Made by a program: the position numbers and the translations under genes. Source: Patescibacteria group bacterium (GTDB taxonomy: Bacteria; Patescibacteriota; Patescibacteriia; Patescibacteriales; UBA12075). Taken from it: a DNA stretch of 24,424 nt. Positions 962-24,424 of this stretch are shown here, in pieces (the stretch's first letter is position 1; each line of letters begins with the position of its first letter). The notes beneath the pieces were generated by a model that did not search any database, had not been told where the DNA came from, and saw only the letters and a list, made by a program, of their open reading frames with translations. Location of the stretch: contig JBBRXK010000001.1 of assembly GCA_038248465.1 (NCBI GenBank), forward strand, positions 1 through 24,424, given 5' to 3'.

Positions 962-1057
962 ACTTTTGAATGAAAGAAATATCTCGGTACTCGAGAAAAT
1001 GATTTAAAATGTAGCCACGATGGTCGAGATAAAACGAATATTAGACAATTTCTGTAT

Positions 1058-1479
1058 ATGTCGGACAAAACCCTAATAAATCTAATAAGAAGCAGTCAAA
1101 ATAACTGGTTATTCAAATGACTATATTGGGCAGCTTATCCGTTCTGGGAAAATACCTGGAAAGCAGATTTATTCTAACATTACCTGGATGACCACCCCAG
1201 AGGCTATCAATGAGTACAAGAAAAAACGCCAAGAAAAAGGATACTGAGCTTGGAATATTGTACAAATTTCAGAATTATAGACGAAAATTGGTTATGGAAA
1301 TCGAGATATTTAAAATGATTTTTCAGAATTTTAAATCAGCACCACCACCACCACTGGTTTTACTAATATTTATAACATTTGCTGGCATCATGTATTCAGT
1401 ATTTTATTTTTCTTTATCAAAAAATAATCAAATAAAAGACTCAAGCCTGCAAACACAGTCACAAAAAATAAACTTTTAA
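1058..1479 (+). pseudogene. Frameshifted small protein: N-terminal excisionase/MerR-like HTH (HTH_17-type) plus C-terminal TM helix, about 139 aa if repaired
   Basis: ATG 1058 gives MSDKTLINL. The +1 frame from 1089 reads EAVKITGYSNDYIGQLIRSGKIPGKQIYSNITWMTTPEAINEYKK (HTH_17-like, no start codon of its own before the HTH). The next +1 frame (ORF 1210-1479) gives KNAKKKDTELG...PPPPLVLLIFITFAGIMYSVFYFSL (TM). Deleting one base near 1086 and one A in the A6 run at 1221-1226 joins all three parts. Confidence 0.65.
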
Positions 1480-1547
1480 TCTTTGCCTTAATTTAAGCGG
1501 AAGTCGCGAGGACAGTAAAAAAGAGACTTTCGTGGAATTGCATCCCC

Positions 1548-4500
1548 ATGCGCATCCCAAAAAAGCACAATACAACGTGCTCGGTTATTCCCCTGGATAA
1601 GAAATTACTCGGCGGAATGAGCAATATAAGCCAGCTAAAACTACGAATTTTTAGCTGGCCTTTGCTTTTTCTTGGGGCTTTTGTTTTGTTAATACTTCTT
1701 ACTATCGTACCTTGGAAAAATCTAATCAAGTCCCTTTGGGCAAATAGCGAAGATATAGAAACTATTAGTTTTTATGCAAGTGGCGTAAATACAGATAAAG
1801 CTGGTGAAAATTACGATGAAGGCTGGTGGCAAACAACAAAAGCTCAGCTAAATCCTGATCTAGCTAGTGACGCCAGTCTTATAGATTTTTCTGATCAAAA
1901 TTCGGCCTTTTATGCCGGTGGCAAATACTCCTTGGTCTTTTCTGCTTTTAATTTTTTGAAAGAAGAGGTGCCTTTCGAGACGCCTGAAGAGATTGATCCA
2001 TGGGATGAAGCGATGCAGGCGGAAAATAGCGAAGATATCCCAGAAGTAGATAACAGTGGAGAAGTAATTGTCGATGACTCGAAAGAAGATTTTTTAAATG
2101 AAGAGCTTGTAGTACCCATTCAACTGGATTCAGAAAGTCAGAACGAATCAGATGTTATTATTGAAAATGAAACTAATAAGCTAGAAGTGGACACGGAGAC
2201 ACCTGAAACAGTTGAAGAATTTTTTGATAATGATGGAGATAGCTCTAGCGACGCAAAAGTATCTAGCCCGCCACAATTACCGACTAATAGCGAATCGGAA
2301 AGCTCGAGAGAAATTAAACCGGTTTCAGTGTTAAATAATATTTTTGGATCAACCGAGGCCATTGCCCAAGAATACCTTACTTCGAAGGTCGAGAAATTTG
2401 AAGACCTGGGGGAATTCAAATCGGCTAAAATTAAATTGTCATTGGCATTTGGGGCTGTAAGTTCAATTAAAAATGAAGATGAAAATGAATCAATTAAGAA
2501 TGAGGATGAGGCAATTCAGAATGAAAATGAATCAATTCAGAATAAGGATGAGGAATTAAGAATTAAGAATGATGGGGTAGATACTTCGAGTGATAATTTT
2601 CCGGCGGCTGATACGATTGATCAAATGATTGCGCCGAGTGAAGATTTGAAGGTTGAGACCTTGCCTCCAGGTGAATCTGATCCAGAGGTGGAAGTGGTGC
2701 CGACAGAGGATAATGCCGAACCGGTTAAGGTGCCAACTGATGAGGCGAAACCAACTAGTCGGGCTGGTGCAATTTTTAGTTTGATCAAGGCGGCTCAGGC
2801 ACAAGTGGAGAATGCTTCGGGTACCAAGCTAGTCTTGTGGTATAGTCTAGACGAGGGGGCGATGGCGACAACTAGCCCGGACAATGCCCAGTTGTGGCAA
2901 CAATTTGACACCCTTGGCCAAGATAGTTTTTCCAATGCCCTGAATAGTGATTATCTAAGCTACGAGGCCGATTTTTTGAAATCTTGGGCCGATATTGAAA
3001 ATCTAAAAATAAAAATAGAAGCAGTTGATGGGGATGAGCTGAAATTTGTCGCCTATATCGATTCAGTTTGGGTGGAAGTGGACTATGATCCAGAAACAGA
3101 GCTTGAAAAAATAGAGAAGCGACAACGTTTTGAAGAAGCTTTAAAATTAATATCAGAACAGACCGTCTTTGAAGTATTTGAAGATGGAACTTTTGTTTTT
3201 GCCTATGAGAAGAATGAAAGACGGATTTGGGATACGCTATCAGAGATGCTTGGGGTGGGAGATTTTTGGAAAGATGTTTCTATATATGTTGATCTCTTTA
3301 GCAGTGACGGCGAGAAGATGGATATCCCCATGAGTGTGATTTTTAATTCTGATGGCGAAATGAATATTACGATTGACAGAGAGGGTAAAAGTATTATGCC
3401 CGGTAAATACAGTTTGCGTTTTCATATTGAAGACAATTCAGGAGAAGTGCCTGAAATTTTTGATATCACCAAAGATTTTTATTGGGGAGTACTCGTAATG
3501 AATACGAATAAAGATATTTACTTGGCTGGTGATTCTGCTTTTGTTCAGATGGCGGTACTTGATGAAGGCGGACACACAGTTTGTAATGCCAAACTAGAAC
3601 TAAATGTAAAAGGTCCAAATGGGGAGGAGGTTTATAAAAATTTCGGAGAGGGAGAAAATGCCATCAAGCTTAGTGACGCTTGTGGTCCGGATACGGTGAC
3701 GGACCAACCAGATTATTCTGTCTTTGTTCCCTTGCGTGCCGAGGGCGAATACGAGATGACTCTCAAAGCCACGACAGCATCTGGAGAGAAGAGTATTAGT
3801 CGTAGCCTGGTGGTAGGCGAGAGTGATTTTAGTATTGAGCGAATTTCGGCGACAAGAATTTACCCCAAAAGTGACTATGATATGCACATTAAAATTGAAG
3901 CAAACAAAGATTTTTATGGTGATATCAAAGAAGTTTTACCAGCTGGATTTAAATATAAACATTTAGACCTAAAAATAATAAATAAAAATACCTCGCTAGT
4001 CATGGATGGCACATATTTATTTAGTGAAGAGCGAGGACCAAACGATGAAGTGGAATTAATCTGGCACGAAGTAAGCTTATCACCGATTGATATTTTGGAA
4101 ATTAATTATACTTACGATGCACCAGACAAATCGCCCGAGACATTCCTAGCTGGTCCAATGGTGCTTAGTCAGAATAGTGAAGCGGTCTATAGCGAAAAAA
4201 GATCTTGGCAGATTGCGTCGGATGCATTGTTAAAAAGAGCCAGGACGGTGATGTTTCAAGCCGGTGTTTATAACGGTGCTGCGACAGCTGGTCAGAACAC
4301 TAACACGGATTATAAATTGGCCGCGTTTAACTGGCGTTTGGCTGAAACGGGTGTCTCAATAAAAAATGCTTACATTGTAATGGAAACACAATTTGAAGCC
4401 TACAATACCATTGGTGGAACCTATGCCGGATACAAACTTGGTTTTGATGCTTGTGTGGAGAATTGTAGCTCGGACGCCTTTGGGGTAGGCAGCGGACAAG

Positions 4501-7500
4501 TCTTGAGTGACAATGCCAATGCGCTGGTATATGACGAGGGTGAGTCCAATACGGGGCGTCTACTCCTGGATGTAAGTAGTGAAGCTCAGTTGGCGGCTTA
4601 TACTGGAGATAGCGTCTTGATGGAATCGCAGTTTGGCTATCGTCTTAAAAACTCTTCGGCCTATAGCTCTATAGCCAATCTGAGCGCGATGCTTATTGTT
4701 ACTTATACTTATGATCTTGAGGCACCTAGTATAACTAATACAGTGGTGTATCCAGTCGATTCAACTACGGGCACCAACAATGGTTCTACTAAAACTGGTA
4801 TCACCACTCATTGTACGGCAGACAATAACTGCCCCACCTTTGCTTACAACATGAATATTCCAGAATGGCCCGGCACCTCGACCTCCACCAATAGAGTATC
4901 ACAATTTTTTAGAATGGATTCTCATCCTTACAACAATACTATTTTTGACATCGAGCCTTATCTGGATATCGAGACCTATAATGTAGATAGTAGTAGATTC
5001 CATTATGAATCAGCGCTTAGTTCCAATGGAAATATGCCTCCGATGTATTTCCCGACTTGGGCAAATTCTGGATATGCCGAAAATCAGGATCAGCAGACAG
5101 AGTTTTATATGGGAGGCGCTACGACTACTTATGCTATCGGGGGAGAAGTTACGGAGACATATATCGCCTCGTCTTCGGCACCACTGAAAACTAGAACTGT
5201 TTCATTTCCGGTGGGAGTTATAAATAATGGTAATAATATGGTCTTGAACAGTAAAGACATAAGCGTGTTTTTCCCGGAGAATGGCAATGCGACTGGCACG
5301 GTGGATATCAAAAGCGCTTGGCTTAGACTAAGGGTGCATGGTGCGATAATCACTAATGCTTATACGGTAACTGTATCGACCAAGGCAGGAAACAGCGCAA
5401 CTTCGACTCCCCAGGCTTATGCTTATCGAGCTAACTCAGCTATTGTAAAACCGACTTTGAATCTATATCATATCATTCCGGAGACTGATTATGCCGAACT
5501 TGAGGAGGCAACAGCCAATTCGGGCAAGACTTTGCGCATTAATTCTACTTATAGTAATGGTAATTTTAGTGTGGCTTCGGCCGAGCTGATGATTACTTAC
5601 ACTTATTCGAGTGAGGCAAATGGCTATGCCACTAGCCTTAGCCTTTTTGGCGGACAGATGACCGCGGCGGCTGCGACGAGCACCACCCTGGCTACTGCCA
5701 ATTCGGTTTTTCCAGAGCAAAATAATAAGACAGTTTTGGCTGGTGGTTTATTTGCTAGTTTTATGAATTCAGATACAACCCGTGCTGTTGGGAACACGGT
5801 CCGTTTAATGGGAGTAAATTTGTCTACCACCATTCCATCATGTACTACTTCCTATAGAGCTCTTCCCGATTCACAAAACATGCACACGGAAATGATTGCT
5901 GAAGTTTCTAGTCTTATAAATACCACCGATAACCAGTCTTACAACGCTTGTTATGCTATAGACGATACAACCGTAGCCACCGATGTGGCTAGTATGAATG
6001 GTCAACTCGTCTACACCTATGGCTGGACAAACACTCCTCCCACGGGCACATTTAATTCTGCCTCATTCCGAATCGATGGCTCGGGCGTAATTGATCTTGA
6101 GGCCGAGGTAGACGATCTTGATGATCAGGATTGTCAGGCCAAGCTCGAATATGCGACTGGCACAACTTGTATTTTCTCTAGTCCGAGTAAGGCGACTATC
6201 GATGAGACGGATGCCAATATAACAGCCCTTTATCAGGATCCATGGGCAAGTAATGCGAACACTTATCAACTCGGTACGGCAAATGGCTACATCACTACTG
6301 CCTCTGGGTCAAACGCTGTGGCTTTCGACTGGAAATCCAAAAGTGATTTAGTAGAGCTTGATGGTGATTATTGTTTGCGCATTACCGCGAGTGATAGACT
6401 GCTTGACCAAGCGACACCAGCCACCACCACCATTTATATTGATAATAAAAAACCAAGTGCTCCAGAGGCCTTGTCTTTACATTCACGAACTGGCTCAGAG
6501 TTAGTTTTAAATTACGGCGCGACTAGCACCGAAACCAATTTTAAAGAGTACAAGATATTTTATAAAGTTTATGATGGCACTGATCCGACCGAAGCGAGTG
6601 CAGTGATTTCTTCGTCGACGGATAGTAATCTCGGGGACAAATATTTTAGCAACCAGGCCACCACTTCAATTTCTGGATTAAATATCAATGTAATTTATAG
6701 CATTGCTATCTGGGCTTATGATTATTATGGAAATGTCTCTAGTTCCAGCCGAGTAGATATTTTTACTAATGACGCACCGATTTCATCGTTTAATAACCCG
6801 ATATTACAAAAGAATGATGGCAGTGGGGCGGTCGATATTTCTATAGAAGCGGATGATTTGAATAACAATGATACCTTGAAGGCAAAAGTAGTGTTTGCCA
6901 CCGGCACCTCCTGTTCTTTTGTAACTCCTGCTACACCACTGCTCGATGAAAATGGAGCGTCAATTCAGGTAGATTTCGGTTCAATTACTATTTCCAACGC
7001 CAATCCTTATCAAGTAGGTGCGAGTAGTGCTTGGATTCTGACCTCGCCTGGATCGAATACTGTTCAATTTGACTGGTTGTCCAAAAATAATCTGCCCAGT
7101 GCCGATGGTGATTATTGTCTAGGTGTAATTGTAAATGATTCTTATGATGATCAGCTAGCTACTTCTACCACTATTGTGACAATCGATAATGTGAAACCGT
7201 TTTCGACCGGCAATTTGCTAACGGGGGAATTAGACGAGAGCCAGATAACTTTGATTTATAATACAGCTAGTCCAGCGACCGATACTCATGAACCAGCGAG
7301 CAATGCTTACAAAATATTTTACACACAAGGAACCACCGGAGTCAGCGAAGCCAACACCGAAGTTGATCGTAGTGACCTAGATGCTTACAATTATAAAAGC
7401 GCCACCTCTACGGTCGTGAACGGATTGTCTCAAAATACTTGGTATGTCTTTAATATCTGGTCTTATGATGATTATGGTAATGCGACTAGCGCCAATGAGA

Positions 7501-8012
7501 TTGCGATCAAGACCGATGCCAATATTACCAACAAGGCACTTACTTTTGTTAATCCGGCCGAGGGCGGATATATTCACAATATCGCCGCAGCGGGTACTGG
7601 AATTTGGACTTTTAGAGTGTTAGTCAAAGAGGTTAGTGGATACTATGCCATAGCTAGCACTACTTTGCGTCTAGCTAATGAGAACGACAATATATCACCA
7701 TATAATGATTTTGCTTTTAGTTGGGATCAGAGTTCCAATGTCTTTTCCGAGATCGGAGCCGATGTTAATTCCCTTGTAACCCTAAGTCCAACTTCAGTTT
7801 CTAATTGTGCGGGTGATTTTTGCACCTTGGATTTTGATTTGATATTTAGTAAAAAAATAATTAGTTCGAGTGTCGAGTTCAACGCCGAGCTATTTAGCGG
7901 TAATGATAGTTTGACCGTAGATCACGACGTGTATCCCAATTTTTATCAAGTGAGAGTACCATATTTGGAGCAGATGCATTATCGGTGGAGGAATGATAAT
8001 GGGGGAGAATAA
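1548..8012 (+). CDS. Giant surface protein P1 (2154 aa): N-terminal TM/signal, acidic region, MG-like module, unique beta-rich region, 2x (Cys-paired Ig-like + FN3-like), C-terminal YRWRNDNGGE tail
   Basis: 6.5-kb uninterrupted ORF. Hydrophobic segment WPLLFLGAFVLLILLTIVPW. FN3 hallmarks YKIFY...GL....Y.F.IW.YD.YGN.S. MG2-like NTNKDIYLAGDSAFVQMAVLDEGGHTV. The start could instead be the in-frame ATG at 1617 (GGCGGA upstream). Confidence 0.9.
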   Translation: MRIPKKHNTTCSVIPLDKKLLGGMSNISQLKLRIFSWPLLFLGAFVLLILLTIVPWKNLIKSLWANSEDIETISFYASGVNTDKAGENYDEGWWQTTKAQLNPDLASDASLIDFSDQNSAFYAGGKYSLVFSAFNFLKEEVPFETPEEIDPWDEAMQAENSEDIPEVDNSGEVIVDDSKEDFLNEELVVPIQLDSESQNESDVIIENETNKLEVDTETPETVEEFFDNDGDSSSDAKVSSPPQLPTNSESESSREIKPVSVLNNIFGSTEAIAQEYLTSKVEKFEDLGEFKSAKIKLSLAFGAVSSIKNEDENESIKNEDEAIQNENESIQNKDEELRIKNDGVDTSSDNFPAADTIDQMIAPSEDLKVETLPPGESDPEVEVVPTEDNAEPVKVPTDEAKPTSRAGAIFSLIKAAQAQVENASGTKLVLWYSLDEGAMATTSPDNAQLWQQFDTLGQDSFSNALNSDYLSYEADFLKSWADIENLKIKIEAVDGDELKFVAYIDSVWVEVDYDPETELEKIEKRQRFEEALKLISEQTVFEVFEDGTFVFAYEKNERRIWDTLSEMLGVGDFWKDVSIYVDLFSSDGEKMDIPMSVIFNSDGEMNITIDREGKSIMPGKYSLRFHIEDNSGEVPEIFDITKDFYWGVLVMNTNKDIYLAGDSAFVQMAVLDEGGHTVCNAKLELNVKGPNGEEVYKNFGEGENAIKLSDACGPDTVTDQPDYSVFVPLRAEGEYEMTLKATTASGEKSISRSLVVGESDFSIERISATRIYPKSDYDMHIKIEANKDFYGDIKEVLPAGFKYKHLDLKIINKNTSLVMDGTYLFSEERGPNDEVELIWHEVSLSPIDILEINYTYDAPDKSPETFLAGPMVLSQNSEAVYSEKRSWQIASDALLKRARTVMFQAGVYNGAATAGQNTNTDYKLAAFNWRLAETGVSIKNAYIVMETQFEAYNTIGGTYAGYKLGFDACVENCSSDAFGVGSGQVLSDNANALVYDEGESNTGRLLLDVSSEAQLAAYTGDSVLMESQFGYRLKNSSAYSSIANLSAMLIVTYTYDLEAPSITNTVVYPVDSTTGTNNGSTKTGITTHCTADNNCPTFAYNMNIPEWPGTSTSTNRVSQFFRMDSHPYNNTIFDIEPYLDIETYNVDSSRFHYESALSSNGNMPPMYFPTWANSGYAENQDQQTEFYMGGATTTYAIGGEVTETYIASSSAPLKTRTVSFPVGVINNGNNMVLNSKDISVFFPENGNATGTVDIKSAWLRLRVHGAIITNAYTVTVSTKAGNSATSTPQAYAYRANSAIVKPTLNLYHIIPETDYAELEEATANSGKTLRINSTYSNGNFSVASAELMITYTYSSEANGYATSLSLFGGQMTAAAATSTTLATANSVFPEQNNKTVLAGGLFASFMNSDTTRAVGNTVRLMGVNLSTTIPSCTTSYRALPDSQNMHTEMIAEVSSLINTTDNQSYNACYAIDDTTVATDVASMNGQLVYTYGWTNTPPTGTFNSASFRIDGSGVIDLEAEVDDLDDQDCQAKLEYATGTTCIFSSPSKATIDETDANITALYQDPWASNANTYQLGTANGYITTASGSNAVAFDWKSKSDLVELDGDYCLRITASDRLLDQATPATTTIYIDNKKPSAPEALSLHSRTGSELVLNYGATSTETNFKEYKIFYKVYDGTDPTEASAVISSSTDSNLGDKYFSNQATTSISGLNINVIYSIAIWAYDYYGNVSSSSRVDIFTNDAPISSFNNPILQKNDGSGAVDISIEADDLNNNDTLKAKVVFATGTSCSFVTPATPLLDENGASIQVDFGSITISNANPYQVGASSAWILTSPGSNTVQFDWLSKNNLPSADGDYCLGVIVNDSYDDQLATSTTIVTIDNVKPFSTGNLLTGELDESQITLIYNTASPATDTHEPASNAYKIFYTQGTTGVSEANTEVDRSDLDAYNYKSATSTVVNGLSQNTWYVFNIWSYDDYGNATSANEIAIKTDANITNKALTFVNPAEGGYIHNIAAAGTGIWTFRVLVKEVSGYYAIASTTLRLANENDNISPYNDFAFSWDQSSNVFSEIGADVNSLVTLSPTSVSNCAGDFCTLDFDLIFSKKIISSSVEFNAELFSGNDSLTVDHDVYPNFYQVRVPYLEQMHYRWRNDNGGE
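2464..2573 (+). repeat. In-frame imperfect 21-27-bp tandem repeat built from heptamers, inside P1
   Basis: Units such as caattaa-gaatgag-gatgagg and caattca-gaatgaa-aatgaat encode IKNEDENES/IKNEDEA/IQNENES/IQNKDEELR/IKNDG. Confidence 0.75.
6030..7520 (+). repeat. P1 domain repeats A-B-A-B (A about 148 aa Cys-paired Ig-like; B about 98 aa FN3-like)
   Basis: A consensus DGSG.IDIS.E..D...AK.EY..G..C.F..P...YQ.G....I.T..G.NTV.FDW.S...L...G.YCL.....D...DQ...ATTT..IDN..P. B consensus NFKEYKIFYK...ATT.I.GL....Y...IWAYD.YGN. Boundaries approximate. Confidence 0.85.
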
Positions 8013-8063
8013 TCAATTGCCCTTTTTCCAATCACACATTTTTTTTTCAATCGCTAAGCTTTG

Positions 8064-8140
8064 TTGTTATCCCGAACGCTCCTCTTTGTCATCCCGCACA
8101 CCCTTTTGTCATCCCGCGCACCCTTTTATATGACAGAAAA
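8064..8140. repeat. Tandem copies of the TTGTCATCCCG repeat family
   Basis: ttgttatcccg 8064-8074, ttgtcatcccgcacacccttt from 8086, ttgtcatcccgcgcacccttt from 8106 (20-bp period between the last two), and an inverted half atgacagaaaa at 8130-8140. Confidence 0.8.
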
Positions 8141-8165
8141 GTAATGTTTGGTTTGCAAATCACGA

Positions 8166-8214
8166 GTTTTCAGCGGTCCAACCGCTGTGGTACAGCGGTT
8201 GGACCGCTGAAAAC
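8166..8214. repeat. Perfect 23-bp inverted repeat with 3-nt loop; each arm is itself a hairpin
   Basis: GTTTTCAGCGGTCCAACCGCTGT (8166-8188), loop GGT, ACAGCGGTTGGACCGCTGAAAAC (8192-8214). Arms contain CAGCGGT-cca-ACCGCTG and CAGCGGT-tgg-ACCGCTG. Confidence 0.95.
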
Positions 8215-8244
8215 GGGGCTTGAAATAAATTTTCTTGAACAAGA

Positions 8245-11200
8245 ATGAAACAATATTTCCAAAAACTAAAAAAACTTTTTCCTCTAGCACTGGCAGTGCT
8301 AGTGGTTTTTGTGTTGTCGACGACTATGGTTCGGGCGGGTTCGGGGCAGGTGCAAAAAGATAAAGGTATGGATTTTGAGCTGGCTTCCAAGAATACAGGG
8401 TTTTCGGCGAATCAGAATGCGGAGTTCGATTTTAAAATTTCTAAAGACCAGAATTGGCTGGCTTCTGTTGGGCAATATTTCAGAAGTTTTTTTGTGGACG
8501 ATTACAAAAATACCGATATCCAGGCCGAAGTTGAGAATGCCACCGGGAATGGACTAACTACCGAGGTGCTTCGTGAAAAGAACGGACAGTTTAGCGTGAA
8601 AGCCAAGTCGGTCGGGCGACAGAGTAAGCCCGGTAAGTATCGCGTAAAGGTATCGGTGAAAGATGCAAATATTACGGGCGGGCAAGAGGCCGTTTTTTAT
8701 CAGGACTTTTCTTGGGGTGTGCTTGCTTTCAACTCGAATAAATCGGCCTACTTGCCTAATGAAAAAGCCTATTTACAATTTGCGGTTTTGAATGAGTCGG
8801 GCCATACGGTTTGCGATGCCGAGCTAAATGTTTTGATAACTGGACCTGGCCGTGACATAAAACTAAGTACCAAGGACGGCACTATCACTCGCAATGCCGA
8901 ATGTGGCCCAGATAATATAATTTTGAATCCAGATTATTATAGTTATCAAGAGCTTAATGGGGCGGGGGATTATGTTGTAAAGGTTACAGCCCAAAATAAA
9001 AACGGAGTTTGGGAGATTAGCGATAAACTTAGTGTACAAACTAAAATTCCATTTGAGCTTGAACGCATGGGTCCAACTCGTATCAATCCAAAAGCTCCTT
9101 ACGGCGTCAAAATAAATATTAAAGCTAATGAGAATTATAAAGGAGATTTACTCGAAATGATTCCATTACAATTTTCAATCTCAAATTACGAATTACGAAT
9201 TAATGATAAAATATTTACCAAAAATCCAAAAATTGAAGTGACGGATGTCGAGACAAAAGTAATCGCGGATAATATTGATATCAAGGCTGGCGACAACATT
9301 GTCATAAGCTACAAATTCAACGCACCAGAAGTAACACCAGAGTTTTATTTGCTGGGATCTTTGCAGACAAAAATAAACGGTAATTTGAATCCGATGGAAA
9401 GTAGGCAATGGCAGATAGCTTCGGACGGAGAGAATCAGGTAATAGTGGCGCAAAATATTCCTATTTCTGCTGGGAATATTGATACGGTTAATTGGAAGGA
9501 TGTGGCCATAGCCTCTTCAACTTTGTTTACCGGCGGAAAAAAATATTTTGTTTATGTGACGGCTGGATTTTCTAGCGCATTGGCGGCGGCCAATCTTGAT
9601 TTTCAAATTAGCTATGGCTCAACTACGAAGTATACAGGACTGATACAAGCCTCCGGTGATCAGGCGAATGACGCTCAACAGATATCTTGGTATGATGTAA
9701 TGGATCAACCAGCCACCACAACTGATATTAGTCTTCAATTTCGACCTAATTCTTCTACGGCTTATGCTATGAACGCTCAGATTATAGCTATCAATCTTAG
9801 TAATCTAGAGACTACTGATTGGAAATACGCGAGTAATACCACGTCTCGCGCTTTGTCTAATGTGGCTACTATAGATGCGACCATGACGATGGACACAGCT
9901 GATGGTGTAAAAGACTGGTTAGTTTTTGCCGGTAATGAATTTTCTATCACAAATACTACAAGACAATATATTAGTCATATTTGGGATGGTACAACGGCGT
10001 ATATGCAAGAGACCCGTGAAGGGCGCAATGCCGCCGAACTGTTGCCCCATGTTTTATATCGATCTTTTGATAATGTCGCTACTAATACAGTTTTTAGTAT
10101 TCGTAATTATGCCTCTGTTGCCGCGGACACACATCTCAAAAGTCGGGTCTTTGCGCTGAACTTAAATCGCTTTGAAAGTTTCAAGAATTATTATGCTAAT
10201 ATTAATACTACGATGACGCCAGTTGGCACTTGGTTTTCGGCGGGCAACTTGAATGCGGGCGGAAACTATTCGCCACTCACTATCGGCAACCAATTAATTT
10301 TTGCTGGCCTTATTAATGACGTAAACACTCAGGCCAATGAATACAATACCAGACTTTTGGTAAATGCCGTCACCTCCCCAGTGGCTTGGAGTTGGGCGCA
10401 AGCACCCGCAGGTTATTTGACACCCAACGAAGCTTTGGAAGAAATTGACAGCAATATTGTGACCCAAATAAGTATTCCATCAAGTGGACAGACTATCAGC
10501 CTGGATGCAGTATCGGCAGTCGGTGTTAATCAAATCTTGGACGAGGTGAGTTTGACGGCTTTTAGTACACGCTTAAAAAATAGCAATAAACCTAATGGAA
10601 TAATTAAAACCGCAAATTTTAGAACGAATGGCTCGGGAATAATCGATTACTCTATTGATGTCGCTGATCGTGATCTCGACGACTCGCGCATGAAGGTGGA
10701 GTTTGCGACCGGTACTACTTGTTCGTTTGTCACGCCGGGCAAAGCCACAATTTCCACAGCCGACGCTGATACCACGGCCACCTACGGCGATCCAAAAGTA
10801 GACAATCTGCTCGCCTATCAAGTCGGCTCCTCGACTGGTTGGATTACAACTACTTATGGTACTACAACGGTAGATTTTGGTTGGACCAGTAAAAGTGATA
10901 TTCCTAGTTCCGAAGGTTCGTATTGTTTGCGCATTACCGTAAATGACGGCACAAATGATCAGGCTAGCCCGGCTACGACCACCGTGTTTATTGATAATAG
11001 TACGCCAAATATTTCGGCGCTAACGACGGCTAATATAAAATATAAAATTGGCGATACTTTGCGAGCGACGGCTACAGTACCCCTCGAGTCGGGGAATTTG
11101 GTGCTCGGAAACGGTTCAACTATCAATGGCAAACCAGCAATTAATGTTCAAAGAGTAGATGACACCACCTTTACTTTTGATTATACGGTTGTAGCCGGGG

Positions 11201-14200
11201 ATACGGATAGAGCGACCGGCACTATTCCATACGTGATTTCTTTGATTGATGCATATAACAATAAAAGTGCGACTTCAAGTGGTAATTTCGCCAATGGCAC
11301 TATAGACGCCAATCCACCGGCGATAAGTTCTGTCACGATTTTAAATAATATGTATGGCGTCGGAAATACGATTACGGCTACGGTCACCGTGACGGCGGAT
11401 GCCGATGTTTATTCACTCGGTGCCTCTACTATAAATGAGGTAAATGCTCAAAACCTTAAAAAAATAAATAATACGACCTATACCGTTGATTACGTGGTTG
11501 TTAGTGGTAATACGGATAGGGCTACTGGAACAATCCCGTATTCTATTATTTTGATTGATTCATTTACCAATAGCAATACAGCTTATGCCGGCAACTTGAC
11601 TAATGCTTCGGTGGATGCTCATCAGCCGATAGTATCATCGGTCTATTTGACCAATGGAGATTATGCTATTGGCGATACCTTGACAGCCGTGATTACAGCC
11701 GACAGCCCAAACTATACAGCAGGTGCGATTACAATTAACGGGAAAAATATTAGTAACTGGGTGAATAACAATAACAATACCTATAATGTTGATTATATGG
11801 TAGCCGAGGGAGATACGGATCGGACGGCTAACACCATTCCAATTTCCGTAGTAGTTTTAGATAATTATGGTAACAGTAATATTGCCTATACTGTGCCCGC
11901 TGCCAACACAGCTACACTTGATGCCCACACACCAAGTATAGCGAGTGTTAGCTTCGCACCAAGTGCTGGCGTACTCAAAGTCGGCGCGACCGCAACCACA
12001 ACTATCACTGTAGCTGGCGCGGAAACAGCGATGACTGCCGGCACAATCTTTACTATCAACGGCATCGACGTGAGTGGCTCCTTCACGGAAATCGGTGGCG
12101 GACAATATCGTGTGACTTACACTGTCAGCGAGGGAGACAACGACATCCTTGATGCTAGTGACTTAGCAATTAATTTTAACATCAAAGATTCCGCCGGCAA
12201 TCAATCGGTATTATTTACTACCGCGGACGCAAGTAACCGGCCTGGTGTTGATGCGCACCATCCAACAATACCAGGAGATTTAAGCTTTGTAGTTCATGGT
12301 GATAATTTTATTACCTTGGCCTTTGGTGCAAACTCTAGTGATTCAAATTTTAAAGAGTATAAAATATTTTATAAAGCTGGTACAAGTGGAATTACAGAAA
12401 GTGATAAGGAATTTAACCAAACTAATGATATAAATTTGGCTAACAATTTGTTTAATGGTCATGCCACCACTACTATTTATGGGTTGTTGTCGGCCACGCA
12501 ATATGTATTTAATATTTTTGCCTATGACAATGCTGGCAATATGTCGGTCGCCGCTATTGAATTATCCGCAATTACCAATTATCCCCCAAGCGACCCTAAT
12601 TTATTAACTCAATACAAAAATGATGGTGTAACAGAATTAAATAATGAAGATTGGACGAATAATAACAGTCTGAAATTTATAGCGAGTTCGACCGATTACG
12701 AGTCTGACCCTCTAATTTTTTATTATGAGTTTTTGCCAAGCGCCAGCTCTTCGTTAACGGCGACCACTGTGCCCGTGTCGACCTGTGCTTCGGCCACAAG
12801 TTACCAGACTTGCGTATCCAAAGTTTGGGAGGTGATCGGAGGCCAGATGTTAGGCATTAACTCTATTCCAGATTCGTCGACTGGTTACAAATGGCAGGTA
12901 CTGGCCTGTGACGAGCATGCTTGTTCTGATTGGACAAAATACAATAGTTTAACTCCAAATATTCTAATTGATACATTGGACCCCGGTGTTCCGGGGAATC
13001 TTACTATTTTTTGGGATGATGCCACCAAAGCCATATTTACGCTTGGCTCATCTTCTGCCGAAGCTAATTTTAAAGAGTATAAGATTTTTTACAAGGGCGG
13101 TTCTTCGGGGGTGAGTGAACTTGATTTTGAGCACAGCTCTTCCACCGATATTAATCTGTCATACAAAAATTACAACAATGCGACCTCAACCTTGATTGAA
13201 AATTTTTCAGTGTTAACAGAGTACACGGTCAATATTTGGGCCTATGACTGGGCAGGTAACAAAAGTCACGCAACAGAAATAACTTTTACGACTGATAATA
13301 CCTACACCCCACCGACTGGACTTTTTAATTCTGTTGCCGAAAAAACTAATGGCAGTGGTGCCATCGATATTTCAGTAGAAATAGATGATCCAGACGACAA
13401 TAATAATCTAAGATTGAAAATTGAATACGAGGCTGGAGCAGACTGTGTCTTTGCCACTCCGCTTGACCCGACACTCGATGCTAATTCGGCAAATATAAAC
13501 GCTGATTACGGTAGTCCGGATGTTGATAACAACAGCACCTATCAAGTTGGAAGCTCGACTTCATACATTCTAACTTCATTTGGATCAAACACGATAAATT
13601 TTGATTGGTTGAGCGCAGTCGATTTGCCAGATGCCAACGGAGTTTATTGTCTTAGAATGACTGCCAATGATGGTATGTTTAATCAGGCCATATCAGCAAC
13701 GACTACGGTGTATATCGACAATCTCGCGCCGACAACGCCAGGGGATTTGAATTTGGAAACAAAAAACACCCATGATTTAGTATTGCGCTATGGCATTGCC
13801 TCAGTCGAAGATAATTTTGCGACTTACAAATTATTCTACAAGCCAGGCGCCGATGGCGTCACAGAGGGAGACACACTACATTCTGATATAAATCTAAGTA
13901 ATCGTTTGTACAATAATAAAGCAACTACGACTGTGGTTGGTCTTGATCCAGGCAACGCTTATGTGTTTAATATTTACGCTTATGACGACTACGGCAACCA
14001 GAGTCAGGCGACTGAACACACTTTTAGCACGAACTTTATTCCCGAGGCACCGAGCTCGCTTGTTCAAAAGAAGAATAATGATACTACGGTGATCGCAAAT
14101 AATAACTGGACCGATGAAAATAATATTCGTTTGAGTTCAAGTATTATTGATGGTGATGCCAGTGAGGTGCTTACCGCTTTTTTTGAATTTCGTCCAGCCG

Positions 14201-17200
14201 GTGATTCCTTTTTGACCGCAACCAGCGTGCCGGCCAACGCTTGTTCAGCGACTGATAACTTTGCTAATTGTACAAGCAAGGTGTGGGCGATTAGCTCGGT
14301 GGCGGGTGATTACAGTTCAAGCCCATTTATAGCCCAAGTTCATCCTAGCGCTATTCCTGATTCGGCAAATGGCTACCAGTGGCAGTCAATCGCTTGTGAT
14401 GACAACGGTGTTTGTTCAGATTGGATAAGTCTTGGGGTGGAGCCAAATTTCAAAGTGGACACAGTTAGTCCAACTAGTCCAGGTGATTTGAGTTTGAATA
14501 CGAGAACACATGACAGTTTTACGATTAATTTTGGTTCGGCAACTGTCGAAAATAATTTTAAAGAATATGTAATCCATTACAAAGTGGGTACGGGCGGAGT
14601 CACTGAGGGTGATACGAGTTTTACATCAGCTAATGATGGTAATTTGTTAATAAAAAACTACAATGGTGTGGCTACGACCACGATAAGCGGACTAAACGAA
14701 AACACCCAGTACGTCCTAAATATCTGGGCCTATGACGATTCGGGACAAAAATCGAGTGCGACGGAAACTAGTTTCACTACCAACAATCGTCCAACTGGTC
14801 AGTTTGTTAGTGCCACGCAAAAAACCGATGGCAGTGGCAAAATTGATTTGTCTATTAGTGTCAATGATAGTAATGGCGAAAATGGTATGGCAAAAATTGA
14901 TTATGTTGTCGGTGTCGATTGTAATTTTTTAGCACCACTTTATCCGACCTTGGATGAAACAGACGCTAGCGCTACCAGTACTCACGGTGACGCCAAAATA
15001 TTAAATAGCAATGTTTATCAAATTGGTAACGATAGTGGCTGGATTGTGACTTCGAGCGGGGCCAATACCGTTAATTTTGATTGGCTTAGTCAAGATAATC
15101 TGCCAACAGAAGATGATGCCTATTGTTTGCGCCTAACTGCGAACGATCAACAAGACGATCAGGCGACCTCCGCTACTACCACTTTGATTATCGACAACAA
15201 AGCACCCACTATACCGGGAAATCTTGGTTTGGAAGGGCACACAGGTTCAACTTTGACTTTGTCATTTGGAGCAGCTTCGCTTGAAAATCATTTTGCCTAT
15301 TACAAAATTTATTACAAAGAGGGCTTGGGCACAGTGAATGAAACTGATACAGAATTGCTTGATGGAGATTTGAATGATAGATTGTTTAATGAAACCTCGA
15401 CTACTTCGGTAAGTGGGCTAGGATATAATACTCAATATAGTTTCAAAATTTATGCTTATGACATTTATGGGAACAAATCAAACTCCGATCAGGTAACATT
15501 CACTACCAATGCACCACCAACTGGTTTTATAAATTCCATCGCGCAAAAGACCGACGATAGTGGAACAGTTGATATTTCTATTGAAGTCTATGATGCTAAC
15601 AACGACGACTGTACAGCCAAGTTGGAATACGTGTCTGGCGCACTTTGTAATTTTGCCTCACCGCTTGATCCAAGCTTGAGCGAAACACAGTCAGATATTA
15701 GTTCCGACCACGGTACCCCTACCATAACAAATTCCAGTGCTTATCAAATCGGCAGTCCTACCAAAATCATCACTAATCAAGGCTCAAACACTATAAACTT
15801 CGATTGGTTGGCAGCTAGCGATATTGGCAGCATGGAAGGAGCCTATTGTTTGCGATTGACCGTAAATGACACTAATGATGATCAGCTTGTTCAAGCGACC
15901 AGTTCATTTTTTTATGATAATAAAAACCCAACTACTCCCGGAAGCTTGAACATTGCTTCTGTTTCCGCAATTTCTGTTGATACCAATTTCGGAACACCTG
16001 GATTTGATACCAATTTTAGTGAATACAAAATATTTTACAAAGTTGGCACAACCGGAGTTACTGAAAATGATTTGGAATTTAATCGCAACGATGATCCAGC
16101 ACTAGGAAATGAGAATTTCAATTTCAGAGCCTTTGCCACAATTGATCATCTCAACCAGAATGCCAATTATGTATTTAATATTTGGATGTACGATGATTAT
16201 GGTAATAAAACAAAGGCGACAAATGAAGTTTCGACGACGACTACCGCTATTGCCTCGGCTACTTGGCGTGAGTCCGAAGACACCCCGGACCCAACTAACA
16301 TAAATTATTTAACTAGACAAGAAAATATTAGATTACGTCTTGATATTGCCAATACGCGTGATTATAAAGCCGATGCAAATATTTTTGATCTCCAGTATGC
16401 AATCAAGACAGGTTCATGTAGTTCTATCTTTGATTGGACGACGGTGCCAGTAACATCAAGCAGTGAACATTTCAATTTTGTCTCTAGTGGGTATGTGAGT
16501 GATGCCTCATCGACAACCGAACGACTTAGTAACTCAGGTGCTTATGAATTTACCCCTGGTTATGTTGTAGCTAATCCATCCAGCAAGGGTGCAAGTATAA
16601 ATATTGCTGCTAATCAGCATACTGAAATGGAATTCGTCTTCAGGCCCAGTATCCATGCCCAGGCTGATACTACTTATTGTTTTCGCTCTACCAATGACGG
16701 TGTGCCGCTTGATTATTACAGACAATACGCTATTTTTACCATGGCTCCACCGCCAATTGGTTCTTTTGAGTCAGCCGAACTTAGAAGCGATGCCTCTAGT
16801 ATAGCCGATATTAGTTTTAAAGTTTTTGATGTCAATGGTGGCGATGCCAGAGCCAAGCTTGAATACGTGGCAAGTTCTACTTGTAATTTTTCTTCGGCAC
16901 TCGAACCGACCCTCGATGCCACTGACGAAAACATTACAGCCACCTATGGAGATCCAGAAATCGACAATGCTTATCCGTATCAAATTGGAACTACTACTGG
17001 TTGGATTATTACTGATTACGGCACGAGCACGGTTAACGTGGATTGGTTGGCGGGAAGCAATCTCACGGGAGCAGATGGAACTTATTGTTTACGCTTGACA
17101 CTGAACGATGGTTATGATGATCAGGCAATACCAGCTACCACCACCATTGTGATAGATCAAGTCAACCCGACTGTGCCAGGTGATTTGGTCGATTTTGATA

Positions 17201-18531
17201 TTTACTCGAACACTGTAACCTTGTCTCTAGGCACTAGTTCAAGCGATACAAATTTTAATGAATACAAAATATTTTACAAAGAAGGGGCTTCGGGCGTAAC
17301 CGAGTCCGACACATTGTGGGGCTCAAGCTCGGATCCAAATCTGGGATTTGCCGATTATGACGGAGCTACTTCTACTACCATCACTGGACTTACTATAAAC
17401 AAACAATATGTTTTCCGAATTTGGGCCTATGATCGGTTTGGCAACAAGTCGGTTTCTGGTGGCGAAGTTTCTGTAATAATTCGTTATAAGTCCCGATCAG
17501 AAAATTGGCGCTGGTACAATGATCAAGATTTAGAGACGCCGACTGCGACGCTCGCTCCGGAAAACGTTAGTCCGATTGATGTGGCCGATGGTGCCAAGAT
17601 AAAGCTTCGATTAGCGCTTCGAGAAATAAGACATATTACGGGTGAAAATATCAAAATCCGTTTGCAGTACTCCACCTTCTCTGATTTTTCAAGCGACTTG
17701 CATTTTGTTGGTGAAATAGGTTCATCCACAGAATTGTGGAATTATGCCGATGGCATTGATGATGATAACGCCGCCATTAGTCAAGCACTTCTAAATGGAG
17801 TTGTGATTGGTGCCACCCACAATGAGTCCGGTATAGCAAGCACTAGCTATGCTCATACGACCGGATCGATAGCCGAGTGGGAATTCACGATACGAAACAA
17901 CAGCGCCCAAGTAGGAACAAGTTATTATTTTCGCGCCTACGATAATACCAATCTATCACCGATAATGAAAAATGGCGTCAGCACCTATCCTAGTTTGTTG
18001 GTTGCCTCACCAAACCTTTCCTACGTTGTCAGCGGTCTGGCGGAGAACGAGGCCGTTGAAGGTTTACATACAACTATTTCAACAACACCAAACTCAATTG
18101 ATTTTGGCAGCCTGATTCCCGGCCATGATGAAATCGCCGCTCAACGTTTTACGATTGATACCAATGCCGGTGGTGGTTATCAGTTGTTTGTTTACCAGAG
18201 ACAAAAACTTCTCTCAGACAATGGTGCCGATATTAACCCAGTACCATATCCAAATGCGACACCAAATGCCTGGCCCATCAATCCGAGTCCAAGCGCTTTT
18301 GGTTATCATGCGGGCGATGACACCTTGTCTGGAGCTTCGCCGTCAAGATTTTCGGCCGACAATACCTATGCGGGCTTTGATTCAGATTTTGAAGAAATTT
18401 CATACTCGAGTATTCCGGTAGCCAACGAAACAGTTGACATGGTGATTCGCCTGGAGTCGAGTAATATGCAAGAAGCGGGAGACTATGCGACCGAAATTGT
18501 TTATGTACTACTACCAACTTTCTTTGAATAG
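8245..18531 (+). CDS. Giant secreted multidomain protein P2 (3428 aa), adhesin/filament-like: signal peptide, MG-like module, unique region, Ig-like/FN3-like repeats, C-terminal WxL-like beta domain
   Basis: 10.3-kb uninterrupted ORF. Sec signal MKQYFQKLKKLFPLALAVLVVFVLSTTMVRA with probable cleavage VRA/G. By hand: 5 A modules, 7 FN3-like, 4 Ig-like C repeats, 2 four-Cys D modules, 2 E domains. The WxL-like call for 18007-18528 is inference. Confidence 0.92.
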   Translation: MKQYFQKLKKLFPLALAVLVVFVLSTTMVRAGSGQVQKDKGMDFELASKNTGFSANQNAEFDFKISKDQNWLASVGQYFRSFFVDDYKNTDIQAEVENATGNGLTTEVLREKNGQFSVKAKSVGRQSKPGKYRVKVSVKDANITGGQEAVFYQDFSWGVLAFNSNKSAYLPNEKAYLQFAVLNESGHTVCDAELNVLITGPGRDIKLSTKDGTITRNAECGPDNIILNPDYYSYQELNGAGDYVVKVTAQNKNGVWEISDKLSVQTKIPFELERMGPTRINPKAPYGVKINIKANENYKGDLLEMIPLQFSISNYELRINDKIFTKNPKIEVTDVETKVIADNIDIKAGDNIVISYKFNAPEVTPEFYLLGSLQTKINGNLNPMESRQWQIASDGENQVIVAQNIPISAGNIDTVNWKDVAIASSTLFTGGKKYFVYVTAGFSSALAAANLDFQISYGSTTKYTGLIQASGDQANDAQQISWYDVMDQPATTTDISLQFRPNSSTAYAMNAQIIAINLSNLETTDWKYASNTTSRALSNVATIDATMTMDTADGVKDWLVFAGNEFSITNTTRQYISHIWDGTTAYMQETREGRNAAELLPHVLYRSFDNVATNTVFSIRNYASVAADTHLKSRVFALNLNRFESFKNYYANINTTMTPVGTWFSAGNLNAGGNYSPLTIGNQLIFAGLINDVNTQANEYNTRLLVNAVTSPVAWSWAQAPAGYLTPNEALEEIDSNIVTQISIPSSGQTISLDAVSAVGVNQILDEVSLTAFSTRLKNSNKPNGIIKTANFRTNGSGIIDYSIDVADRDLDDSRMKVEFATGTTCSFVTPGKATISTADADTTATYGDPKVDNLLAYQVGSSTGWITTTYGTTTVDFGWTSKSDIPSSEGSYCLRITVNDGTNDQASPATTTVFIDNSTPNISALTTANIKYKIGDTLRATATVPLESGNLVLGNGSTINGKPAINVQRVDDTTFTFDYTVVAGDTDRATGTIPYVISLIDAYNNKSATSSGNFANGTIDANPPAISSVTILNNMYGVGNTITATVTVTADADVYSLGASTINEVNAQNLKKINNTTYTVDYVVVSGNTDRATGTIPYSIILIDSFTNSNTAYAGNLTNASVDAHQPIVSSVYLTNGDYAIGDTLTAVITADSPNYTAGAITINGKNISNWVNNNNNTYNVDYMVAEGDTDRTANTIPISVVVLDNYGNSNIAYTVPAANTATLDAHTPSIASVSFAPSAGVLKVGATATTTITVAGAETAMTAGTIFTINGIDVSGSFTEIGGGQYRVTYTVSEGDNDILDASDLAINFNIKDSAGNQSVLFTTADASNRPGVDAHHPTIPGDLSFVVHGDNFITLAFGANSSDSNFKEYKIFYKAGTSGITESDKEFNQTNDINLANNLFNGHATTTIYGLLSATQYVFNIFAYDNAGNMSVAAIELSAITNYPPSDPNLLTQYKNDGVTELNNEDWTNNNSLKFIASSTDYESDPLIFYYEFLPSASSSLTATTVPVSTCASATSYQTCVSKVWEVIGGQMLGINSIPDSSTGYKWQVLACDEHACSDWTKYNSLTPNILIDTLDPGVPGNLTIFWDDATKAIFTLGSSSAEANFKEYKIFYKGGSSGVSELDFEHSSSTDINLSYKNYNNATSTLIENFSVLTEYTVNIWAYDWAGNKSHATEITFTTDNTYTPPTGLFNSVAEKTNGSGAIDISVEIDDPDDNNNLRLKIEYEAGADCVFATPLDPTLDANSANINADYGSPDVDNNSTYQVGSSTSYILTSFGSNTINFDWLSAVDLPDANGVYCLRMTANDGMFNQAISATTTVYIDNLAPTTPGDLNLETKNTHDLVLRYGIASVEDNFATYKLFYKPGADGVTEGDTLHSDINLSNRLYNNKATTTVVGLDPGNAYVFNIYAYDDYGNQSQATEHTFSTNFIPEAPSSLVQKKNNDTTVIANNNWTDENNIRLSSSIIDGDASEVLTAFFEFRPAGDSFLTATSVPANACSATDNFANCTSKVWAISSVAGDYSSSPFIAQVHPSAIPDSANGYQWQSIACDDNGVCSDWISLGVEPNFKVDTVSPTSPGDLSLNTRTHDSFTINFGSATVENNFKEYVIHYKVGTGGVTEGDTSFTSANDGNLLIKNYNGVATTTISGLNENTQYVLNIWAYDDSGQKSSATETSFTTNNRPTGQFVSATQKTDGSGKIDLSISVNDSNGENGMAKIDYVVGVDCNFLAPLYPTLDETDASATSTHGDAKILNSNVYQIGNDSGWIVTSSGANTVNFDWLSQDNLPTEDDAYCLRLTANDQQDDQATSATTTLIIDNKAPTIPGNLGLEGHTGSTLTLSFGAASLENHFAYYKIYYKEGLGTVNETDTELLDGDLNDRLFNETSTTSVSGLGYNTQYSFKIYAYDIYGNKSNSDQVTFTTNAPPTGFINSIAQKTDDSGTVDISIEVYDANNDDCTAKLEYVSGALCNFASPLDPSLSETQSDISSDHGTPTITNSSAYQIGSPTKIITNQGSNTINFDWLAASDIGSMEGAYCLRLTVNDTNDDQLVQATSSFFYDNKNPTTPGSLNIASVSAISVDTNFGTPGFDTNFSEYKIFYKVGTTGVTENDLEFNRNDDPALGNENFNFRAFATIDHLNQNANYVFNIWMYDDYGNKTKATNEVSTTTTAIASATWRESEDTPDPTNINYLTRQENIRLRLDIANTRDYKADANIFDLQYAIKTGSCSSIFDWTTVPVTSSSEHFNFVSSGYVSDASSTTERLSNSGAYEFTPGYVVANPSSKGASINIAANQHTEMEFVFRPSIHAQADTTYCFRSTNDGVPLDYYRQYAIFTMAPPPIGSFESAELRSDASSIADISFKVFDVNGGDARAKLEYVASSTCNFSSALEPTLDATDENITATYGDPEIDNAYPYQIGTTTGWIITDYGTSTVNVDWLAGSNLTGADGTYCLRLTLNDGYDDQAIPATTTIVIDQVNPTVPGDLVDFDIYSNTVTLSLGTSSSDTNFNEYKIFYKEGASGVTESDTLWGSSSDPNLGFADYDGATSTTITGLTINKQYVFRIWAYDRFGNKSVSGGEVSVIIRYKSRSENWRWYNDQDLETPTATLAPENVSPIDVADGAKIKLRLALREIRHITGENIKIRLQYSTFSDFSSDLHFVGEIGSSTELWNYADGIDDDNAAISQALLNGVVIGATHNESGIASTSYAHTTGSIAEWEFTIRNNSAQVGTSYYFRAYDNTNLSPIMKNGVSTYPSLLVASPNLSYVVSGLAENEAVEGLHTTISTTPNSIDFGSLIPGHDEIAAQRFTIDTNAGGGYQLFVYQRQKLLSDNGADINPVPYPNATPNAWPINPSPSAFGYHAGDDTLSGASPSRFSADNTYAGFDSDFEEISYSSIPVANETVDMVIRLESSNMQEAGDYATEIVYVLLPTFFE
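9169..9203 (+). repeat. Five tandem heptamers in frame within P2
   Basis: caatttt caatctc aaattac gaattac gaattaa, encoding QFSISNYELRIN. Confidence 0.7.
10585..17481 (+). repeat. P2 repeat array A-C4-B-D-B-A-B-D-B-A-B-A-B-E-A-B
   Basis: Read from the translation. C repeats (11005-12258) share P.I.SV......Y.IG.T.T.T....Y.V..GDTD....IP....L.D...N. D modules share Q.K.D..T...N..W...C...C.SKVW...IPDS..GY.WQ..ACD...CSDW. Boundaries approximate. Confidence 0.85.
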
Positions 18532-23854: not shown

Positions 23855-23856
23855 AT

Positions 23857-24424
23857 ATGCCCGAAACAATCAATGAAAACCGATTCAAAGACATACAAGA
23901 ATTGACTAAAGAAACTGGTACTGGTCTTGAACTTTCCAAAACACCAGCGACAGAAAAGGTAGCCAAGGGTTTGGCTGTACTAAATGTTGCCATTGATCAT
24001 GACACCAGCATAACGCCAAATGACCTAGTCGCGATAGAAGAAGGTCTAGCTACGGTCAAGCTAGATATGGGTGGAGAACAATTTAGTATTCAAGAATTAA
24101 AAGACATCCCAGATTTAAAAATGAATGTTGAAATATGGAAAGAGATAGTGAACGGAAATTTTAATAATGTTAGAAAGCTAACTTTCATTACTCCAAAAAT
24201 AGCCGAACACCTCGCCAAACATCGAGGAAATCTCTATCTCCAGGGCCTCAGCTCCATCTCCGACACCATCGCCGAACACCTCGCCAAACACCAAGGAAAT
24301 CTCGATCTCGGTGGCCTCAGCTCCATCTCCGACACCTCCGCCGAACACCTCGCCAAACACCAAGGATATCTCAATCTCGGTGGCCTCAGCTCCATCTCCG
24401 AAACCGCCGCCGAACACCTCGCCA
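23857..24424 (+). CDS. Leucine-rich-repeat-like protein (23-aa repeats), 3' end outside the window
   Basis: Not in the ORF track. ATG 2 nt after the AAA stop, open to the window end: MPETINENRFKDIQELTKETG...KLTFITPKI then (AEHLAKHxGxLxLxGLSSISDTx)n. Confidence 0.85.
   Translation, partial: MPETINENRFKDIQELTKETGTGLELSKTPATEKVAKGLAVLNVAIDHDTSITPNDLVAIEEGLATVKLDMGGEQFSIQELKDIPDLKMNVEIWKEIVNGNFNNVRKLTFITPKIAEHLAKHRGNLYLQGLSSISDTIAEHLAKHQGNLDLGGLSSISDTSAEHLAKHQGYLNLGGLSSISETAAEHLA
24202..24424 (+). repeat. 69-bp coding tandem repeat (3 full copies plus a partial)
   Basis: gccgaacacctcgcca begins at 24202, 24271, 24340 and 24409, in frame with ATG 23857; C-rich codons. Confidence 0.95.

Follow-up and report, generated by a model that had tools for sequence, protein, structure and literature searches.

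Contig JBBRXK010000001.1 of a Patescibacteria group bacterium (GenBank assembly GCA_038248465.1; 1.06 Mb in 165 contigs, 79% complete) was analysed over its whole length of 24,424 nt, referred to below as the window. Two very large genes lie side by side on its + strand. The first, P1 (1548–8012), encodes 2154 residues with an internal hydrophobic segment near the N-terminus; the second, P2 (8245–18531), encodes 3428 residues and begins with a sequence resembling a signal peptide, both features having been recognized by eye and not by a predictor. P2 contains two copies of a domain that we call E, namely E1 (16255–16755, about residues 2671–2837) and E2 (17494–18006, about residues 3084–3254). 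An initial annotation, made from the sequence alone, had proposed that P1 donates its last β-strand to E1, which would lack that strand; the positions and sequences that it gave for the P1 tail, E1 and E2 all proved accurate. Here we present evidence from alignments, genome surveys and predicted structures that the tail and E1 correspond to the two halves of one split domain, which would be reunited between the two proteins by strand complementation.

P1 ends in a conserved C-terminal peptide

P1 terminates with EQMHYRWRNDNGGE followed by a stop codon (7968–8012), the longer C-terminal stretch reading FYQVRVPYLEQMHYRWRNDNGGE-TAA. The last folded unit before this tail is a domain that we call Z (7515–7955, about residues 1990–2135), whose final residues are FYQV. 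It is followed by a linker and candidate donor strand, YLEQMHYRWRNDNGGE (7962–8009), within which HYRWRNDNGGE (7977–8009) forms a near-invariant core, and then by the stop at 8010–8012. The tail has no hydrophobic or transmembrane part of the kind found in sortase- or exosortase-type signals. The E-domain profile hidden Markov model (HMM) detects no E domain in P1, which would make P1 a donor without an acceptor.

When the P1 C-terminus was used as a query, 43 homologues with 44–63% identity were obtained, all from Patescibacteria assemblies and several labelled Candidatus Falkowbacteria. The C-terminal tail Q.HYRWRNDDGGE is present in 43 of 43, with GGG in a few and five additional residues in one. 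An exhaustive profile search of 1.84 billion representative proteins added 27 representatives whose tail match likewise reaches the end of the protein; they close in the same way, except that one is extended by 12 residues and another carries the variant HYGWRNDDGGE. Apart from the two short extensions among about 70 proteins, then, P1 homologues do not continue past GGE. Simple truncation, frameshift and read-through were considered as origins of the tail and rejected, since no frame continues and the stop is conserved in these homologues; translation of the spacer behind the P1 stop revealed no continuation of a domain in any of its three frames.

Conservation in the C-terminal region of P1 is highest in the tail: the mean column identity is 0.94 over the last 11 residues vs 0.63 over the preceding 169. 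At the level of DNA the picture is different: across five loci, the tail codons differ at 6–17 of 45 nucleotides while HYRWRND.GGE stays constant, the stop, at a conserved position, is TAA (as here) or TAG, and the DNA on its 3' side is unrelated. This synonymous turnover, together with the change of stop codon and of downstream DNA, indicates at the sequence level that selection acts on the tail peptide and on its being the C-terminus of P1; conservation of the region as DNA, for example as a regulatory or recombination site, was ruled out on the same grounds.

The exhaustive search also found the Z domain without a tail in about 100 further representatives, most of which continue after Z with a C-terminal domain of about 160 residues, of the type that we call W. 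Overall, Z occurs in more than 100 representatives of 200–5600 residues, nearly always close to the C-terminus.

E1 begins at the second segment of the E domain

E1 and E2 had been supposed to be homologous, and this is upheld by BLASTP (26% identity, E 3e-7) and by the E-domain HMM, which scores them at 88 and 214 bits respectively. Neither Pfam nor NCBIfam holds a family model for the E, Z or W domains. A complete E domain starts with two consecutive segments, xRWxxDxGxE and then ATW.E.ED, and both are present in the E domain of a paralogue on contig C9 of the same genome, which reads ...THSRWRYDNGTE-ATATWREAEDTGDP.... E2 is complete: its first residues are RSENWRWYND at 17494, and its first strand, NWRWYND, lies at 17503–17523. 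E1 opens with SATWRESED at 16255, which a MAFFT alignment of 11 E domains and hhalign both place on the second segment, with the counterparts TATLAPEN in E2 and TATWREAED in C9; similarly, its match to an HMM built from complete E domains begins at HMM position 14. A degenerate first strand in E1 is suggested by the BLASTP register of ATWRESED on ENWRWYND, which requires an 8-residue gap and with which MAFFT, the HMM and hhalign disagree; it was rejected.

What precedes E1 is an fn3 domain (15958–16248), its last strand ending in EVSTTT and being followed by four residues and then SATW. The N-terminal segment of E1, IASATWRESEDTPDPTNI (16249–16302), is the presumed docking partner of the tail. 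A search with the fn3–E1 region found 31 P2 orthologues, and 31 of 31 possess exactly one strand-less E domain, starting at HMM position 13–30, together with a complete E2. The fn3/E1 junction follows the pattern YD.YGNK..A..EVSTTT-xxxx-SATWRE.ED..DPT, in which A, W, R, D and P are invariant, and its length is constant, single-residue gaps aside. We conclude, on the agreement of these alignments, that E1 lacks the first segment, as initially proposed, and is preceded by the last strand of fn3.

Some 37 other giants, which we term class B and of which C9 is one, have two to three complete E domains each. Apart from the strand-less E1 domains, about 100 E domains from four sequence contexts retain the first segment, whether fn3, a CBM-like domain (X) or another domain stands in front of them, which argues that the strand belongs to E and not to whichever domain precedes it. 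No free strand resembling the first segment was found in P2, which would be an acceptor only, and no other xRWxxD-type segment occurs in P1 or P2 or at any other reading-frame end of this genome.

P2 varies in length: in two relatives the open reading frames (ORFs) with the strand-less junction reach 10246 residues (G685:C8, about 75–135 kb) and 9052 residues (G683:C32), and the orthologues span an approximately fivefold range through expansion of fn3/D modules. P2 ends in a W domain (18007–18528, residues 3255–3428) whose homologue (26% identity, E 1e-6) is the C-terminal domain behind Z in many of the P1 relatives that have no tail. Its sequence pattern, FGSLIPG...GGYQL...GDYATEIVYVLLP, recalls in our view that of WxL-type cell-surface domains, and Pfam gives no match. 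Close to their N-termini, P1 (3399–4223) and P2 (8629–9426) share an MG2-like region with weak Pfam matches to MG2 and InlK_D3 in both; by this homology the two would be paralogous at their bases, in addition to being partners at their tips.

The tail and E1 abut in an unsplit module

The paralogue on contig C9 (positions 1–7494; genome G000, loci L003 and L005) is a 5'-truncated giant ORF of more than 2498 residues and belongs to the unsplit class. Its order is a LamG/DUF2341-like region, fn3, E, the CBM-like domain X, a second E and then cysteine-rich repeats. The unsplit X–E module is also present in the paralogous giants P0075–P0115. Judged by sequence, the C9 giant is the natural single-chain counterpart of the pair formed by the P1 tail and E1.

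Three alignments were compared: A1, the unsplit X–E module from 38 class-B proteins; A2, fn3 plus E1 from 31 P2 orthologues; and A3, the last 180 residues of 41 P1 homologues. With hhalign, the end of A3 (...HYRWRNDDGGE) aligned to columns 151–191 of A1 (E 1.2e-10), and A2 aligned from SATWRE onward to columns 193–358 (E 8e-60). One piece ends at column 191 and the other starts at column 193, so that the break between the genes is located within one column, and the P1 tail does match the segment that E1 lacks. By these alignments the break coincides with the tip of the turn that joins the first segment of E to the second. When the P1 tail and the start of E1 are joined, about 16 of 20 positions around the break match the C9 module.

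The three alignments are equally divergent overall (mean pairwise identity 0.50–0.53), and the strand has a mean column identity of 0.90 as a trans tail vs 0.77 for the same strand in cis. The second segment behaves likewise, with 0.81 in E1 vs 0.73 in the unsplit module. Both halves of the split interface are thus more conserved than their cis equivalents, as expected if the strand must bind its socket without a covalent tether.

Predicted structures of the split and unsplit domains

AlphaFold2 (AF2) was run on natural sequences only, as single-chain predictions. The unsplit C9 module was modelled with a mean predicted local distance difference test score (pLDDT) of 89.8 and a predicted template modelling score of 0.83. 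In this model the tail-equivalent forms a 10-residue strand at residues 167–176 (pLDDT about 96), to which, with the adjoining turn, the linker and donor strand of P1 correspond; the second segment that follows it is well ordered. VIA-align identified residues 9–164 as a CBM-like jelly roll (phage phi812 baseplate protein, Z 14; CBM22/CBM16, Z 8–9.5). For the E unit, residues 165–344, the best solved matches were the fn3-like C-terminal domains of GH3 glucosidases, with a Z of about 8, and uncharacterized relatives in AlphaFold-DB align from residue 163–164 (root mean square deviation 2.2, 32% identity). The structural matches to the E unit therefore begin at residues 163–165, which makes the tail-equivalent the first strand of the E sandwich.

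The model of fn3 plus E1 has a pLDDT of 85.6 and contains every E strand except the first. Fn3 ends at about residue 97, and no upstream residues take the place of the missing strand. The only stretch with a pLDDT below 50 is residues 98–115, which is the invariant second segment IASATWRESEDTPDPTNI; the segment is thus disordered in the model of E1 alone and ordered in the unsplit module. Folding of E1 with its own upstream residues, which had been named as a possible objection, is accordingly not seen in the model. E is predicted from these models to be an Ig/fn3-like β-sandwich of about 170 residues, which in E1 is without its first strand.

Other structural searches were uninformative. Foldseek against the Protein Data Bank, using the two-domain model, returned generic jelly-roll and Ig tandems only, with no residue ranges. 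VIA applied to the fn3–E1 model gave matches dominated by the fn3 domain and no information on E1. The ESM-Atlas feature search yielded no usable result.

Tail and strand-less E1 occur together

We then surveyed 316 genomes of the order with a profile of the P1 C-terminus and a profile of the fn3/SATWRE junction. Junction matches were counted at full length only (E at most 5e-27), where they were clearly apart from partial matches. The P1 profile had a strong match in 28 of the 316 genomes and the full-length junction was found in 25, distributed such that 23 genomes have both, five have the tail alone, two have the junction alone and 286 have neither. All seven genomes with a single feature are fragmented assemblies or have the match at a contig end. 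Positive genomes contain one tail and one strand-less E1 each.

Of the 23 genomes, 15 have tail and junction on a single contig in the same orientation, the junction being 6.8–28.5 kb downstream of the P1 end. The P2 orthologue stands 3' of the P1 orthologue on the same strand, across a gap of 115 nt in one genome and with a small inserted ORF between them in another. The possibility that P1 and P2 are unlinked in some genomes was dismissed after two split cases had been checked, both being due to contig breaks inside P2. The expectation that tail-bearing and strand-less proteins should co-occur is therefore borne out, and the two moreover adjoin. The suggestion in the initial annotation of a general assembly code for giant surface proteins of the candidate phyla radiation (CPR) was too broad: against the 28 of 316 genomes of the order, P1 was found in only four of 401 sampled across the class, and the pair is restricted to a few families within a single order.

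In the window, the spacer between P1 and P2 (8013–8244, about 233 nt) contains two direct repeats of about 20 nt (tgtcatcccgc.cacccttt, at about 8088–8130) and a perfect 49-nt palindrome (8166–8214) with runs of T and A on either side, a possible terminator for P1. The neighbours of the two genes are DKNYY, NUDIX, M23 peptidase and AAA_5 genes; those of the orthologous loci include Cas genes, McrBC and unrelated genes. No sortase, chaperone or usher gene was seen in the window or in the orthologous neighbourhoods examined. An McrB-like AAA_5 gene and a following ORF occupy 21902–24423, on the 3' side of P2, and another genome has an McrB/McrC pair immediately 5' of its P1 orthologue (locus L006, 5570–8646). 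These McrB-like neighbours may reflect coincidence or a loose synteny with a restriction system.

A proposed plug-and-socket between P1 and P2

We believe, with a probability of about 70%, that P1 and P2 form a 1:1 complex by trans complementation of one split domain with a β-strand. The analysis demonstrates the homology of both pieces to one module in which they abut, their conservation, their co-occurrence and adjacency, and the predicted fold; from these we infer the docking of the tail in E1, its stoichiometry, and where and when it takes place.

The first strand of E (consensus Q.HYRWRNDDG.E) would direct two aromatic side chains, Y and W, towards the sandwich and then turn back into the ATW.E.ED segment. 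P1 would retain the linker and this first strand as a free C-terminal tail, and E1 of P2 would begin with the second segment, right behind fn3. After export of both proteins, the P1 tail would enter the vacant first-strand position of E1 and, by doing so, order the otherwise floppy SATWRE.ED..DP segment. Docking would join the P1 arm of about 2150 residues to P2 at residue ~2670, and the docked pair would rebuild from two polypeptides the Z-E-...-E2-W architecture of the single-chain relatives. The initial annotation regarded P2 as secreted and tethered to a membrane-anchored P1, an assignment that is tentative: a hydrophobic segment stands near the N-terminus of both, and the C-terminal domain is present in P2 only. 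The split Ig-like domain is probably a dedicated plug-and-socket, which joins two separately exported giants into a branched surface assembly of about 5600 residues. The donor would be the 11-residue C-terminal peptide HYRWRNDDGGE and the acceptor an internal strand-less domain, and we consider it likely that the coupling is genetically encoded, chaperone-free and non-polymerizing. With donor and acceptor on different proteins, no filament can form.

Several observations weigh against this proposal. The rest of E1 was modelled confidently by AF2 without the strand, so that E1 might be stable alone, and the likeness of E to solved folds, at a Z of about 8, is middling. The last E domains of P0080 (at residue ~5057) and P0105 (at residue ~4329), both class-B-like giants with no known partner, are without the canonical first segment and start with ATWRE.ED right behind a LamG-like domain. 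These might be independent splits or cases in which E tolerates loss of the strand, and they suggest that some E domains may do without the first segment. Finally, the genomes counted for co-occurrence are related and the genes adjacent, so that the counts do not represent phylogenetically independent events; the split may have a single origin.

Most of the probability left to other readings goes to another partner for the tail or another filler for E1. The first of these, which we regard as unlikely, is that the conserved C-terminal tail serves as a recognition peptide whose partner is not E1, and that E1 works as a sandwich without a first strand. Its target would be, with the same low probability, a sorting, processing or anchoring factor, a host-cell ligand or another protein. 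The tail is indeed strongly conserved and terminal, like known C-terminal sorting tags, and the folding of the E1 core by AF2 without the tail, as well as the E domains of P0080 and P0105, would be compatible with such a role. Against it, the tail is a homologue of the first strand in the very E subtype to which E1 belongs, its end abuts the start of E1 within one column, and tail and strand-less E1 occur 1:1 in the same genomes; nor has the tail the hydrophobic or transmembrane part of sortase- or exosortase-type signals, and no sorting enzyme was seen in the neighbourhoods examined. More doubtful still is the possibility that the vacant position in E1 is filled by another segment of P2 or by a third protein, the P1 tail being bound elsewhere or free. 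The model that bears on this covered fn3 plus E1 of the 3428-residue P2, which leaves room for a filler from its distant parts; but the residues upstream of E1 are the fn3 G strand and then a fixed four-residue spacer, and the search of P1, P2 and the other reading-frame ends of the genome for a second xRWxxD-type segment was negative. Although in a single genome the tail resembles the stump of a truncated domain, a non-functional relic of gene fission or truncation, or an artefact of assembly or gene calling, is effectively refuted by the conservation data, namely the same stop position in about 70 diverged homologues, the synonymous codon turnover, and a tail whose conservation exceeds both that of the remaining protein and that of the equivalent strand in unsplit domains.

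Comparison with known systems

A literature search found no paper that contains the tail motif and none that describes the P1/P2 pair. A parallel in polarity to the proposed strand complementation between P1 and P2 is provided by the type V pili of Bacteroidota (FimA/Mfa1-type), in which the C-terminal strand of another polypeptide fills the groove of a β-sandwich that is without its N-terminal strand. Type V subunits are synthesized with their N-terminal strand, which proteolysis of the lipoprotein precursor then takes away, and since each of them donates as well as accepts a strand, they polymerize. P1/P2 share the absent N-terminal strand and the C-terminal donor, and are in this respect nearer to type V than to chaperone–usher pili. 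They differ in that the strand is absent from the gene and not proteolytically removed, in that E1 is internal, at P2 residue 2671 behind fn3, and in that P1 is donor only and P2 acceptor only, which would give a heterodimer. Furthermore, P1 and P2 have 2154 and 3428 residues, in contrast to the small pilins, and no known sequence homology to them.

In chaperone–usher pili (Pap/Fim), the pilins lack their C-terminal G strand, an N-terminal extension acts as donor, and a periplasmic chaperone and an usher are required. An incomplete Ig-like fold completed by a strand of another chain would be common to both systems, but the polarity of P1/P2 is the opposite, with an N-terminal strand missing and a C-terminal tail as donor, and there are no chaperone or usher genes near P1/P2 in the loci examined. 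More generally, in the polymerizing strand-exchange pili (type I, type V, Pam, TasA and archaeal threads) every subunit is donor and acceptor, which is not so for P1/P2.

The nearest conceptual precedent is the surrogate light chain, a natural 1:1 heterodimer of VpreB and lambda5 in which the Ig domain of VpreB is without one strand that lambda5 supplies (PMC12859133). There the strand is encoded on the other gene as an extension outside the folded domain of the partner, and the acceptor is unfolded or disordered until binding (PMC12859133). The surrogate light chain differs in belonging to the vertebrate immune system, in missing the last (J-region) strand, and in consisting of small proteins that are unrelated to P1/P2 in sequence.

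Within the CPR, a preprint describes Pam pili (PamA/PamB), which are built by donor-strand exchange between Ig-like domains (PMC13278184). The Pam pilins are small two-domain subunits that polymerize via a linker strand; they occur chiefly in Saccharimonadia and Microgenomatia, with chaperone-like genes in their vicinity, and their conservation is highest in the donated strand and where it binds, as it is in P1/P2 (PMC13278184). By that paper's description, P1/P2 differ in being giant, non-polymerizing and from another lineage (the records being labelled Falkowbacteria or Parcubacteria). Donor-strand exchange as a principle is accordingly not new to the CPR (PMC13278184), and we regard P1/P2 as a variant of known complementation.

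True homology to the P1 tail and E1 is found in the unsplit X–E module of C9 and P0075–P0115. This module differs from the pair in being a single chain, in having the strand after the CBM-like X and not after the Z domain of P1, and in the lower conservation of that strand.

Significance

Few genes of the CPR/Patescibacteria, organisms that depend on contact with other cells, are as conspicuous and as little understood as those for giant surface proteins. The P1/P2 locus appears to present a clean natural fission of a domain with both halves under selection, and annotation pipelines should consequently not call such stumps and incomplete domains truncations. The peptide and its domain would be a natural pair of the tag/catcher kind, and could serve as a tool for coupling proteins. 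If our proposal is true, donor-strand complementation would serve not only to polymerize filaments but also to couple huge multidomain proteins in a 1:1 ratio, with neither chaperone nor usher. For the few families in which the pair occurs, the conserved split domain would then provide a concrete rule for the assembly of two giants, consisting of a short peptide and a domain of about 170 residues.

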